The translations under genes and the position numbers were made by a program. Shown here one piece after another: positions 4,825 through 31,230 of a stretch of 64,000 bases of DNA. The stretch is from a phage: NCBI GenBank assembly GCA_024572335.1, contig GCA_024572335.1_3052.1; one strand, given 5' to 3'. A model generated the notes under the pieces. That model ran no database searches. It was given only the letters and a program-made list of their open reading frames with translations, and was not told the DNA's origin. Every line of letters begins with the position of its first letter. Positions within the stretch are counted from its first letter, which is position 1.

Positions 4825-5132
4825 CGGAAAGTCCCTGCAATTGGAATACTAACAATACGCCCAGTATCTAGAATTCGTTGATATAATCTTTGTGTATCTA
4901 CATCAGGCTTAACATGTTTAACTTCTATTTTATTAAACCAAAACTTGCGTGGAGTCTCAACTAGTCTTGGAATTCCCATACCTAAAGCTAGTTTATATTG
5001 GTCTTTGAGAGTAGTAAAAACTCTATCAGCAATCTCTCTTTCAAAAAACACAGCAGGACGATGTTCATCAAGTGGAACTGGCGCCGTAAATCCGTCTTTG
5101 TCTCGGTAAACTATCGCATATACATAAACCAT
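4821..5132 (-). CDS. Hypothetical protein (dda.1 position)
   Basis: 103 aa ATG ORF overlapping dda start by 4 nt. Confidence 0.5.
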   Translation of the reverse strand: MVYVYAIVYRDKDGFTAPVPLDEHRPAVFFEREIADRVFTTLKDQYKLALGMGIPRLVETPRKFWFNKIEVKHVKPDVDTQRLYQRILDTGRIVSIPIAGTFR

Positions 5133-10330: not shown

Positions 10331-11670
<1,340 letters not shown>

Positions 11671-16446: not shown

Positions 16447-16791
16447 TTAAAAGAATTTAAATTTTTTCTTTGACCTTTTATTAAATGCATCTTGTAGTTG
16501 CATTGTAATACATTTTTCTACATGAGGAGCTAACTCAGCTTTTCTTTCTTGGTCAAGAACAGCAAAGTCCATTACAACCTTTCCATCAACCCAATCTAAT
16601 TTTGTCACATACACAATGTGTGTAGAACCATCTTCTAGTTTAATGACAATCTCCTGGATAACATTTTCCATGGCAGATTTAATTATCTTAAGAGATTCAT
16701 TAAAAAGACGTTCTTTTCTTTTTTCTTCCCCCTCCGAAGAGGGGGATTCATCTATAATTTCTAGATCTAAGTCTAAATCATCTTTATTCAT
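16447..16791 (-). CDS. 40: gp40-position protein (head vertex assembly factor in T4)
   Basis: Track ORF has GTG start at 16809; ATG at 16791 overlaps uvsX stop; size about 114-120 aa. Confidence 0.55.
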   Translation of the reverse strand: MNKDDLDLDLEIIDESPSSEGEEKRKERLFNESLKIIKSAMENVIQEIVIKLEDGSTHIVYVTKLDWVDGKVVMDFAVLDQERKAELAPHVEKCITMQLQDAFNKRSKKKFKFF

Positions 16792-17965
16792 TAAATTCTT
16801 CCATACCACTTAACTGCTCGAGGTCAGTTTCTAAATCAGCAGCTGATTTACTTTTACTTTCTGGAGATTTAAATTTTTCAACCTTTGAGTTAATCAATTC
16901 ATCAACTTCAGCTTCAACAATTTCATTACTATCAATAGCACCTAACTGATAAGCACGTTTAATAGCATCTCGGAATGGTTGATGCTTAAATAAAGGACCC
17001 CAGAATGTAGTGCAGTTGGTATCTTTTGCACGCCAAGATTTTTCTTCGCGAATCATCTCGCCGGTTTCTTCGTCAAGAAATTCACGCGCATACCAGCCAT
17101 TTTTAGGTTTTACTACAAATCCTAATTCTAGAGCCATATCTAACAATCCAGAATAAGGATCGATACCACCGTCAAATTTAACATCAATAAAGAATTTACT
17201 TTTTTCTTTAACGGTACGAGATTTTTCTACATTTAGAACAAATTGATATCCCTGAAGATCAGAACCATCTTTAATCTGACGTTTACCGATAATGAATACA
17301 GTATCAGCCGAATACATTACGCCTGTACCGCCTGTCATCACGGTTTTACTAAACATTTCAATTGTTTCAATTGTATGGTTAACCGCAACACATGGAATAT
17401 TTTTAATGCTAAAGTAAGGAGTAACAATACGGAATAATGACTTCAGTGATTTAGCACGAGTCATATCTGCCACAGATTTTTCATTCAAGGCATCTTCCGT
17501 TTCTTTCTTAGAAGCCATATTACCAATTGAGTCGATGAATACAATAACCTTTTCACCACGCTCAATAGCTTCAAGCTGGTTCACCATATCAATTTTCAGC
17601 TGTTCAACTGACTGGATTGGTGTATGAATTACTCGTTCCGGGTCAACTCCCATAGATCGCAAATAAGCTGGAGTGATACCAAATTCGCTATCATAGAATA
17701 GACAAACCGCGTCAGGATATTTGTTCAAATATGCCGCAACCATAGTCAAAGACATATTTGATTTAAAGTGTTTAGAAGGCCCTGCGAAAATAGTTAAACC
17801 AGACTGCATGCCGCCATCAATCGCACCAGAAATAGCAATATTAAGCATTGGGATTTTTGTACGGATTACATCCTTTTCATTAAAGAATTTAGATGTAGTC
17901 AGTTCAGCAGTCATTTTAGAAGTTGAAGCTTTAATCAAACGGGATTTTAAATCTGCAATAGACAT
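16784..17965 (-). CDS. uvsX: Recombinase UvsX (RecA/Rad51 family)
   Basis: 393 aa; Walker A GPSKHFKS; highly similar but not identical to recalled T4 UvsX. Confidence 0.9.
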   Translation of the reverse strand: MSIADLKSRLIKASTSKMTAELTTSKFFNEKDVIRTKIPMLNIAISGAIDGGMQSGLTIFAGPSKHFKSNMSLTMVAAYLNKYPDAVCLFYDSEFGITPAYLRSMGVDPERVIHTPIQSVEQLKIDMVNQLEAIERGEKVIVFIDSIGNMASKKETEDALNEKSVADMTRAKSLKSLFRIVTPYFSIKNIPCVAVNHTIETIEMFSKTVMTGGTGVMYSADTVFIIGKRQIKDGSDLQGYQFVLNVEKSRTVKEKSKFFIDVKFDGGIDPYSGLLDMALELGFVVKPKNGWYAREFLDEETGEMIREEKSWRAKDTNCTTFWGPLFKHQPFRDAIKRAYQLGAIDSNEIVEAEVDELINSKVEKFKSPESKSKSAADLETDLEQLSGMEEFNE

Positions 17966-18042
17966 TCATTTTTTCCATAGGCATCATTATATTTTCCTCA
18001 CTGGTTAAAGATAGAGTAATTATAACACAATAAATTTAGGCA

Positions 18043-18885
18043 TTAATCAACTGCTATCGGATGAATAGCATTAAACTTATGAAATGCTTCTGATTTTTCT
18101 TTGCGCGAAACACACATGCGAAGAACCTTTAATGGCTCGTCTTCTTCACCCAACGATTTTCGTTTTTCAATATTAGAAGTTTTCCAACGAGCTTGCTCTG
18201 GAAACTCTCTATTGATTTGCTCAAGCGCTCTATTATGTTTAGAATTACTACGAATTGAACTGCACCCGCCAGGAGCTTGTGCTTTTCCAGATACAACCAG
18301 ATATTTGAACAAGGCCAAATGCGGATAACCTTGATTAATTAAATTGAGAAATGCATACATATCTTCGCACAAATCAATTTTTCCATACCCAATTTGTTCT
18401 GTAGTAAGTTTTCCGAGGTCATACCATGTATTCGTGAATCCATATGAATTTTCACGATAATTACCCCAAGATGAAGTAATTTTAAAAATAGGTAGACGAG
18501 CATGACCGTGATAATACCCACAATCCATGGCATCTTCGACGTATTGAATCAATTCATAGAACTGTTCACGGGTTAATTGATTGACTTTATCCACACAACG
18601 ACGGTCATCTCTTTTTCGCATTGAACTCATACGAATAGTAGTATCATCGTCAATCATCCAGATTCGTTGACCTGCATACATATCAGTAATTGCTTTACGA
18701 GTACCGGCAATTCCGTTTACATCATCAGGAATAGTTATAATTTTAGCTCTAGACCCATAGGCATCATAATAAGCTTTTTCTTCATGTTCACGCACTACAA
18801 TATGGGGTTCATAATCAGTCGGAAACATATCAAGGGCAGAAACTGCCCCGACACGCTGATAACTTGGAATTACGAATTGAATCAT
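18043..18885 (-). CDS. GT-A fold glycosyltransferase at the beta-gt locus (not T4 Bgt)
   Basis: About 280 aa; GT2-like N-terminus FVIPSYQR and DxD-type motif IWMIDDDTTI; sits between uvsX and gene 42 where T4 has bgt. Confidence 0.6.
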   Translation of the reverse strand: MIQFVIPSYQRVGAVSALDMFPTDYEPHIVVREHEEKAYYDAYGSRAKIITIPDDVNGIAGTRKAITDMYAGQRIWMIDDDTTIRMSSMRKRDDRRCVDKVNQLTREQFYELIQYVEDAMDCGYYHGHARLPIFKITSSWGNYRENSYGFTNTWYDLGKLTTEQIGYGKIDLCEDMYAFLNLINQGYPHLALFKYLVVSGKAQAPGGCSSIRSNSKHNRALEQINREFPEQARWKTSNIEKRKSLGEEDEPLKVLRMCVSRKEKSEAFHKFNAIHPIAVD

Positions 18886-19622
18886 TTCCACTCACCTTTA
18901 TAGTCTTTTTTCACAATATGAGTTTCGCCAGTATTCCACCAATGATCAACCAAGTAAAAATGACGAGAATATACATGAAGACTTCCGACATTCCATATAA
19001 TAGAACCTGCTTTATACTGACGAGTTGAATCGCCGGCATTCAAATCAGATACTAATTTATCTAATACGTATTTTTGCCATGCATAATCATTACGGAATCC
19101 GAAGACCACGTCATTTGAGCGCATGCTTACTACTGCATTGACTTTCTTATCACGAATCAGGTACTGTACTGTATTAGTACACATGAAATCTGACATACCA
19201 TCTTTATTGTAGTCAAATTGCATGGATGGACGAGTATAAATCATAATACCACGTCGAGAATCAGGGTTTTGACCAAGTTCAGCTAAACACATATCATACT
19301 GGGCGTAGTTATCTTCTGACCAAATAGCCCAACCGTAATTCGAATTAATTTCGCCTTTAGAAGATGCGACCTGCTGCCAAATCTTTGGTGTTTCACCTGG
19401 AATATCTTTAACAAACAAGCTCTTAGATTTATACCATTCAAGTTCACGCTGAATGTATTCATCATTAAGAGCGCCAAAAATAAACGGTTCATCTGCTACA
19501 AATGATGTGCCAATAATTTCAATAGTTTTAACACCAGTTTTATCAACTACGAAATCTTTTTCTTTTAATGCAAGCCCCAAATGAAGACGGATTTCTTCAA
19601 CTGTCATAGAGTCACTAATCAT
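18882..19622 (-). CDS. 42: dCMP hydroxymethylase gp42
   Basis: 246 aa, size and position as T4 gp42; thymidylate-synthase-like fold. Confidence 0.85.
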   Translation of the reverse strand: MISDSMTVEEIRLHLGLALKEKDFVVDKTGVKTIEIIGTSFVADEPFIFGALNDEYIQRELEWYKSKSLFVKDIPGETPKIWQQVASSKGEINSNYGWAIWSEDNYAQYDMCLAELGQNPDSRRGIMIYTRPSMQFDYNKDGMSDFMCTNTVQYLIRDKKVNAVVSMRSNDVVFGFRNDYAWQKYVLDKLVSDLNAGDSTRQYKAGSIIWNVGSLHVYSRHFYLVDHWWNTGETHIVKKDYKGEWK

Positions 19623-19775
19623 TTAAACCTCAATTGATACATTCATATTTAACTTGTAACAGTAATAAACCCCAACCTAAAATAATAGTTGGAATCATAA
19701 GAGGAACCGTTACACTATAGTATATACTTATTATAATCATCAAGATTAAAAGCAACACTGCTATAATTTTGCTTT

Positions 19776-20027
19776 TCATTCCTTCTCTCTGATGATAATT
19801 ACCTGATTTGGTTGTGCAGACTTTTTAGTTTCACCCGCAATTGACCAAATAAATGTAATAAACCAACCAATAATTGACCAGTTAAACAGTAAAGATGTGA
19901 AAAAGATTCCTACTGTCGATTTTGACCCACGCATCAAGGCAATGAACCATGGAAGCATGTATATAATAATAGCCAACACACCTGAAACTAAAACCATAAA
20001 AATTGAACCTGCTACTAAAGTTTCCAT
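19776..20027 (-). CDS. imm: Immunity protein Imm (membrane)
   Basis: 83 aa, two predicted TM helices; size and position as T4 imm. Confidence 0.6.
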   Translation of the reverse strand: METLVAGSIFMVLVSGVLAIIIYMLPWFIALMRGSKSTVGIFFTSLLFNWSIIGWFITFIWSIAGETKKSAQPNQVIIIREKE

Positions 20028-29851: not shown

Positions 29852-30011
29852 ATATCAAGAACCGTCATTGAAATGCAAAATAAAATTATTGAAATAAATC
29901 CATCTGGAGTGCTAAAGAACCCAATCCAACATGCTCTAGTGAATAGATAAAATGCAAGAAAAAGTATCACATATCCAAGAAATATCATTATATCAAACTC
30001 CGTATAAAGCT

Positions 30012-30029
30012 AAAGGGCCGAAGCCCTTT
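30012..30029 (-). terminator. Terminator hairpin at the agt stop
   Basis: AAAGGGC-UUCG-GCCCUUU then UAGCUUUAUAC. Confidence 0.6.
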
Positions 30030-31230
30030 ATTTTGTAATAATGTCAAACTGTTCTTTAAAACAGAAGCTTGAATCTTGATGCTGATACAAAAATTCATAT
30101 GCTTTTTCTCGCTCACGGTCATAAAGAGCTCGGTCAGATGACAGTTCTTTAATACGTTCAAATGTTGATTCCATATCATTTTCATCAAACCAAATGATAC
30201 CGCTATCATGCGAGGTCAAAGGAGTATTATCAACACGGAATTTTAAATTTTCGCCAGTAGATTTCCAAAATACCGGAATTGTTCCACATGCACCAAGCTC
30301 GAGATGAGTATATTCTAAAGAACGTTGTAAATATTTTTTGTCCAACTTACTCAGTTGATAACCAAATCCGGATTTACTCATGCGTTCAAGCATTTCGCTA
30401 TTTACATAACGGTCAAGAATTTGCGTTGGCAAATTAGGAGCAATTTTAATTTGGTCTACTTGATGAAGACGATAATACTCGTATGGAATTCCTTTTTCTT
30501 TAATAGGAATGAACGCTGGAGAACGTTCCAGACCTTCCATAATAGTACTTAGTCCTGCAGGTTTAAGATGTTTTTCATGAAAATCAAACATCTGATAAAA
30601 ACCTTTCCATGTAGTAGTACGACCAATCCAACGGTTGATATTCATGTTAATTTCAGAAACATCTTTCCAGTAGGTTGATCGAACCTTCGCAATATCCATA
30701 GGAGGCTGAAAGTTGTATACGGTCGGTGCTTCTTCAACATCATCAAACAGTGAAACAGTTTCTGGATACCATTCTTTCATTAAAACTTTATTAAAATCAC
30801 CATTATCAGAATGGCTAAAAATAACATCAGCTCGACGAACAGTTTCTTCTAATCCCAAATTTCGACGCAAAGAAAGAGAAGAATGGTCATGCTGATAAAC
30901 TACAACACGAACAGAAGGTTTAATGTTATCAATAATTTTTTTATAGTTATTAATAGTGTCTTCTTCAACCGAAGTAGCAGGAACTGAATTGATAATTAGA
31001 ATATCACAATCATTTACCAGCTTAAGTGTTTTATCGTATTCTTTTGCCAATAAAACCGGAATTGAAAATGATTTATAATCATGCGCGCAATTACGAGTAA
31101 ATGATTTATCTTTAGCATAAACCAAAGTCACTTCATGACCATTTTTAATAAACCAATCACGTTGCTCGAGTGAGAATTTTGTTACACCACAACCTTCAAG
31201 ACCTCGAGCCATAAAAATACATACTTTCAT
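30028..31230 (-). CDS. agt: Alpha-glucosyltransferase
   Basis: 400 aa; sequence closely matches recalled T4 Agt (MKVCIFMARGLEGCGVTKFSLEQRDWFIKNGHEVTLVYAKDKSF...). Confidence 0.85.
   Translation of the reverse strand: MKVCIFMARGLEGCGVTKFSLEQRDWFIKNGHEVTLVYAKDKSFTRNCAHDYKSFSIPVLLAKEYDKTLKLVNDCDILIINSVPATSVEEDTINNYKKIIDNIKPSVRVVVYQHDHSSLSLRRNLGLEETVRRADVIFSHSDNGDFNKVLMKEWYPETVSLFDDVEEAPTVYNFQPPMDIAKVRSTYWKDVSEINMNINRWIGRTTTWKGFYQMFDFHEKHLKPAGLSTIMEGLERSPAFIPIKEKGIPYEYYRLHQVDQIKIAPNLPTQILDRYVNSEMLERMSKSGFGYQLSKLDKKYLQRSLEYTHLELGACGTIPVFWKSTGENLKFRVDNTPLTSHDSGIIWFDENDMESTFERIKELSSDRALYDREREKAYEFLYQHQDSSFCFKEQFDIITK

Follow-up and report, generated by a model that had tools for sequence, protein, structure and literature searches.

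The gene between uvsX and gene 42 of a Tequatrovirus genome very probably encodes the second-glucose transferase of T2 and T6

In T4, the locus between uvsX and gene 42 carries b-gt. Which transferase occupies this locus in the present phage DNA, and what kind of sugar coat would it give to the virion DNA? A sequence-only reading of the window (the whole stretch of 64,000 nucleotides which was analyzed) had noticed at this place a protein of roughly 280 aa with GT-A signatures and without resemblance to T4 Bgt. It had proposed a second-sugar or alternative-linkage transferase, and thus a decoration different from that of T4.

Gene, start codon and neighbouring genes

The open reading frame between uvsX and gene 42 was confirmed and encodes 280 aa from ATG 18885 (Table 1). 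In the program-made list of open reading frames it begins at GTG 18891 and its stop ends at 18043. ATG 18885 is the annotated start in the record of the Shigella phage ESh32, which encodes a 100% identical protein. At this position, the stop codon of gene 42 and the start codon of the transferase gene share 4 nt (...GGT GAG TGG AAA TGA / ATG ATT CAA), and the records of ESh32, T6 and T2 show this ATGA overlap in their annotation as well. On the basis of the overlap and the annotation of these three phages, ATG 18885 was taken as the biological start. The overlap may couple the translation of the transferase gene to that of gene 42, and by this coupling the transferase would be made early along with the other DNA-precursor enzymes.

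Table 1. Coordinates of the features in the window
Feature	Position	Strand	Evidence or remark
Transferase gene (ba-gt / ggt / TAGT), probable beta-glucosyl-HMC-alpha-glucosyltransferase	18043..18885	minus	280 aa + stop
ATGA overlap of gene 42 stop codon with ba-gt start codon	18882..18885	minus	read from sequence
Gene 42, dCMP hydroxymethylase	18882..19622	minus	PF00303, thymidylate-synthase family; name from annotation of relatives
uvsX recombinase, downstream flank	16784..17965	minus	PF21134, 4.7e-39, and RecA
a-gt, DNA alpha-glucosyltransferase	30028..31230	minus	PF11440, E 3.9e-237, 786 bits
Segment without T4 nucleotide homology	17954..18899	no strand	blastn against T4
Spacer, transferase stop to uvsX start	17966..18042	minus	77 bp
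Hydrophobic ORF between imm and gene 42	19630..19779	minus	49 aa; phrog_3610 (function-unknown group)
dam	10331..11110	minus	PF02086, 1.3e-50
ORF preceding dam	11110..11670	minus	186 aa; phrog_8706 (function-unknown group)

Gene 42 is the upstream and uvsX the downstream neighbour, and the transferase gene alone (0.84 kb) separates them. Beyond gene 42, the window possesses the 49-aa ORF, imm, imm.1 and then gene 43. The GC content of the transferase gene (0.376) is close to that of the neighbouring genes (0.36-0.37), so it gives no compositional signal of foreign origin. A promoter and terminator scan of the transferase locus gave counts not above those of shuffled sequence. The spacer between the transferase stop and the uvsX start holds TGTTATAAT, an extended -10-like element, and GAGGAAAA, a ribosome-binding site 5' of uvsX. 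The TGTTATAAT element was not listed by the generic promoter scan because it has no -35 match.

Two other ORFs of the window were also observed. The 49-aa ORF is strongly hydrophobic, and its start codon overlaps with the stop codon of imm (ATGA). Its frame is maintained in T4, T2 and T6, where the residue changes are conservative and the 153-bp gap is unannotated in the records. A counterpart in RB69 bears the annotation 'similar to T4 42-imm intercistronic region'. The 186-aa ORF precedes dam, and its stop overlaps the dam start. It showed no Pfam or NCBIfam match, is found in 181 phage records and was once annotated as 'putative restriction endonuclease'. A 'restriction enzyme-like gene' beside Dam has been described in the Durham phages which contain hmC, glucosyl and gentiobiosyl species at 1:2:2 (PMC13390438).

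Identity of the transferase

Comparison with known proteins identified the product, with very high probability, as the Tequatrovirus beta-glucosyl-HMC-alpha-glucosyltransferase (ba-gt, ggt or TAGT), and no finding spoke against this assignment. By tblastn and direct comparison, it showed 98.6% amino acid identity over the full length of 280 aa with T6 YP_010067197, the TAGT reference in PMC13216743, and differs from it by Y40N, D55G and R106H (window to T6). The identity with the T2 protein was 99.3% over the full length, with two residue differences, R11H and P251S, in both T2 records. The protein of ESh32 showed no difference at all, and several phages of the BASEL and Durham collections, including vB_Eco_Solly (OY720021), encode a 100% identical protein (tblastn). 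The protein matched PHROG 842 (phrog_842), a group which bears the name beta-glucosyl-HMC-alpha-glucosyltransferase, at E 6.4e-89 over residues 1-275. It also matched the Pfam family PF20691 (TET-associated glycosyltransferase, TAGT) with 38.9 bits against a gathering cut-off of 27.5, residues 3-207 aligning to profile positions 2-205 of 205, while no NCBIfam model matched. The order gene 42, transferase, uvsX is that of T2 and T6, and the partners gp42 and Agt are encoded in the genome, the latter by the gene which the sequence-only reading had already assigned as agt and which the PF11440 match bore out. A search against the T2/T6 beta-alpha-glucosyltransferase was among the checks proposed by that reading, and the end-to-end match agrees with its suggestion that the protein is perhaps a second-sugar transferase which would produce a decoration unlike that of T4.

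The enzyme of T2 and T6 adds a beta-1,6-linked second glucose onto alpha-glucosyl-hmC and thereby forms gentiobiosyl-hmC (PMC11078745, PMC13216743, PMC6024577). From its near identity, the window protein is expected to transfer glucose from UDP-glucose onto alpha-glucosyl-hmC DNA by the same linkage. The gene, its genetics, chemistry and synteny have all been described previously, and the locus represents the textbook arrangement of T2 and T6. The cloning and sequencing of ba-gt from both phages is credited to Winkler and Ruger (NAR 1993 21:1500, as cited in PMC11946311), and the synteny of ba-gt with T4 b-gt is also in print. A T6 delta-ba-gt mutant reported in 2024 contained alpha-glucosyl-hmC only and showed increased sensitivity to Brig1 (PMC11078745). 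The BapA glucosidase deglucosylated the DNA of T6 delta-g-gt and did not deglucosylate that of wild-type T6 (bioRxiv 10.64898/2026.02.25.707755). The virion DNA of 10 Tequatroviruses carrying ba-gt has been measured (PMC13390438). In seven of them, including Solly (by HPLC/MS), hmC made up about 1/3 and alpha-gentiobiosyl-hmC about 2/3, with a trace of alpha-glucosyl-hmC, and the other three contained hmC, glucosyl and gentiobiosyl species at about 1:2:2. Beta-glucosyl-hmC was found in none of the ten.

The position at the b-gt locus, together with the name 'b-gt' or 'putative beta-glucosyltransferase' given to the gene in several database records, could hint at a diverged equivalent of T4 Bgt, adding a single beta-glucose onto bare hmC and giving a T4-like alpha/beta mixture. 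TAGT homologs are also found in other phages beside Bgt homologs or alone, so that the acceptor specificity may vary across the wider family (PMC13216743). This reading is highly improbable in view of the sequence comparison. BLASTP of the transferase against T4 Bgt (NP_049658, from NC_000866) found no similarity (best E 2.2), and a tblastn search of the complete 64-kb window with T4 Bgt gave no match (best E 1.3). The lack of resemblance asserted from the sequence alone thus held, and nothing like an end-to-end alignment with T4 Bgt was seen. T4 Bgt matched PF09198 at 9.4e-98, while PF20691 is the only Pfam match of the window transferase, and the two proteins belong to different fold classes, GT-B and GT-A respectively (PMC13216743). 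Furthermore, phages with an identical or near-identical protein possess no beta-glucosyl-hmC; their DNA contains alpha-gentiobiosyl-hmC along with about 1/3 bare hmC (PMC13390438), and in T6 delta-ba-gt it is the second sugar which is lost, not the first (PMC11078745).

The reading that the enzyme transfers a sugar other than glucose, for example as an arabinosyltransferase of the RB69/Mosigvirus type, and gives a non-glucose decoration is the least probable of all and very nearly negligible. This option had been raised by the sequence-only reading, and the arabinose-pathway cassette of RB69 occupies the same uvsX / gene 42 neighbourhood. The comparison with the RB69 genes went against it. RB69 ORF003c (the candidate arabinosyltransferase) and ORF052c/053c gave negative bit scores by phmmer and with the family profile, and tblastn of the transferase on RB69 1-30000 found no similarity (best E 2.2). 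The RB69 cassette, taken here from uvsX to record position 30,000, the end of the stretch compared, comprises ORF045c-055c and about 6 kb, for which there is no room between uvsX and gene 43 of the window. The window encodes a glucose system with gp42 and Agt, and its transferase shows 100% identity with that of Solly, whose DNA was measured to contain gentiobiosyl-hmC. The identity as an RB69-type arabinosyltransferase was rejected at the sequence level, as the transferase matched none of ORF003c, ORF052c and ORF053c.

Predicted fold and proposed reaction

The signatures FVIPSYQR and DDD, which had been read as those of a GT-A enzyme, were found at residues 4-11 and 79-81, with the core IPSYQR at 6-11 and an ED pair at 174-175. 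The homolog search gave 11 protein clusters (P0001-P0011), all of which carry PF20691, so the alignment behind the structure model is shallow. The AF2 model was built from a 9-sequence alignment and is of moderate confidence (mean pLDDT 72.5, pTM 0.73), with weak stretches at residues 131-150 and 203-211 (pLDDT <50). It is composed of a single Rossmann-like nucleotide-sugar-binding domain of GT-A fold, in which DDD is situated at the end of the beta-strand 74-79. Residues P7, S8, Y9, R11, D79-D81 and D175 are invariant among the 9 homologs, down to 32% identity. A sequence search for solved structures detected none for the transferase. The top hit of the 9-homolog profile among PDB sequences was 9jma, a GT2 beta-1,3-glucosyltransferase, at a weak E of 0.25; this weak alignment places IPSYxR with IPTYNR and DDD with DDDD. 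An AlphaFold3 model of T6 TAGT also has a GT-A fold and was described as sister to GT2 (PMC13216743).

On the basis of the model, the transferase may be a GT-A, GT2-like inverting enzyme. GT2 enzymes are inverting, and inversion of UDP-alpha-glucose would give the beta linkage, which suggests a metal-dependent single displacement. The IPSYQR strand-loop and DDD would hold the UDP-sugar and a divalent metal, with DDD contacting the metal and the diphosphate of the donor. By analogy with the 'ED' motif of GT2 enzymes, the likely candidate for the catalytic base is D175, in the ED pair. In the proposed pathway, gp42 would supply hm-dCMP and hmC would enter the DNA at replication. Agt would then add an alpha-linked glucose to most hmC, and the transferase would add a glucose derived from UDP-glucose, in beta linkage, to the 6-OH of this first glucose to give gentiobiosyl-hmC.

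The transferase would in this way set the sugar coat of the DNA as gentiobiosyl-hmC and not the alpha/beta monoglucosyl mixture of T4. The virion DNA is predicted to contain hmC, alpha-glucosyl-hmC and gentiobiosyl-hmC and no beta-glucosyl-hmC. The type of coat bears on the sensitivity to Brig1, BapA/Brig3 and the type IV nucleases (GmrSD/BrxU), as established for T2, T6 and relatives. According to the literature, the bulk of the disaccharide shields DNA from enzymes which act on alpha-glucosyl-hmC, for example the glycosylase Brig1 and the glucosidase BapA, and it gives no shield against nucleases of the GmrSD/BrxU type.

Extent of diglucosylation, distribution and relation to known systems

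The published share of gentiobiosyl-hmC differs widely among phages with near-identical enzymes, being 5% in T2, about 40% in Durham EL/BGP/Geo and about 67-72% in Solly and T6 (PMC11078745, PMC13390438). An intact gene could therefore contribute little in the present phage, as in T2, leaving DNA with mostly alpha-glucosyl-hmC and bare hmC. The T2 protein is only two residues away from that of the window and yet T2 has 5% gentiobiosyl-hmC, and the two GenBank records of T6 show lesions in ba-gt, suggesting that laboratory growth does not require this gene. This outcome is considered unlikely. The protein is identical to that of Solly, about 2/3 of whose DNA is gentiobiosylated (PMC13390438), and it retains the family-invariant R11, which is H in both T2 records; these two observations favor a high gentiobiosyl fraction in the window phage. 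All of the ten Durham Tequatroviruses carrying ba-gt also possess at least 40% gentiobiosyl-hmC (PMC13390438).

The R11H change lies in the IPSYQR motif of the T2 records AP018813 and MH751506 (window codon 11, 18853..18855), while R11 is kept in the window, in T6 and in all 9 homologs down to 32% identity. It is conceivable, though rather doubtful, that R11H is hypomorphic, so that the 5% of T2 against the 72% of T6, with enzymes about 98% identical, would reflect a defect of the laboratory strain. No statement in the literature was found which gives R11H as the cause of the low gentiobiosylation of T2. If this suggestion is true, heavy gentiobiosylation would be the wild-type state of Tequatrovirus, the window phage included. 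In the T6 record MH550421, ba-gt has an amber at codon 10 (CAG to TAG; 4951..4953 of the compared stretch) and is annotated from an internal Met, and in AP018814/NC_054907 one Asp of the invariant DDD is missing. These lesions are either mutations of laboratory stocks or sequencing errors.

By megablast, about 475 phage records contain the transferase gene at 90% nucleotide identity or above, the carriers being Tequatroviruses of Escherichia, Shigella, Yersinia, Salmonella and Citrobacter. T4-type Bgt was found at or above 90% identity in just 29 records. The sequence-only reading had compared the locus with that of T4; by these counts, the window represents the majority state of Tequatrovirus and T4 is the exception. 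Homologs of about 65% identity are found at the same location in T4-like phages of Klebsiella, Enterobacter and Salmonella, and of 48% identity in Serratia phages. In the literature, the pairing of alpha-GT with beta-GT as in T4 was found in 6 of 753 genomes, and most of the phages which encode glucosyltransferases possess an alpha-GT or a beta-GT, alone or with TAGT (PMC13216743). In three Tequatroviruses (MZ234030, OR539218 and MZ234053), a Bgt homolog with 55% identity to T4 Bgt adjoins the TAGT gene, which is 96.8% identical to the window transferase. No literature description was found for the product of such a beta-GT and TAGT pair, possibly a diglucosyl group on a beta-linked first glucose. 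Many carriers are annotated with beta-glucosyl-HMC-alpha-glucosyltransferase, 'beta-alpha-glucosyltransferase' or 'ggt', and others with 'hypothetical protein' or the two beta-glucosyltransferase names mentioned above. The practical value of the present identification is the corrected annotation of a gene which is mislabelled in several database records.

Among the sugar-decoration systems of T-even-type phages, the arabinosylation genes of RB69 and ba-gt are alternatives to each other. RB69 arabinosylation uses a different sugar and a different base precursor (PMC13390438), and RB69 ORF003c, predicted to be GT-B (PMC6024577), shows no detectable similarity to the GT-A transferase of the window. 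Within PF20691 the window protein is a distant member which shares the DxD-type motif. It also possesses a C-terminal extension of about 70 residues (208-280), which is outside the PF20691 domain and has lower model confidence. With ba-gt of T6 and T2 it shares the slot, the ATGA overlap and the gp42 and Agt partners, and it lacks both lesions of the T6 records (the amber at Q10 and the missing Asp of DDD).

The comparison with T4 was also made at the nucleotide level by blastn of the window against NC_000866 19000-30000. The homology is 92.7% across gene 41, gene 40 and uvsX and ends at about 17954. It restarts at about 18900, and from there gene 42, imm and gene 43 are covered with 96.9%. 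The gap represents a cassette of 0.95 kb in place of the 1.94-kb segA and b-gt of T4. In T4, the homing endonuclease gene segA follows b-gt, whereas no segA is situated between uvsX and the transferase gene, and no SegA homolog was found within the window. The window transferase is smaller than T4 Bgt (280 against 351 aa), has a GT-A fold in the model against GT-B (PF09198), and as a ba-gt type enzyme would use the glucose of alpha-glucosyl-hmC as acceptor, while T4 Bgt uses the hydroxymethyl group of hmC. Common to ba-gt and T4 Bgt are the slot downstream of gene 42, the UDP-glucose donor known from the literature, the beta outcome and the hmC DNA substrate.
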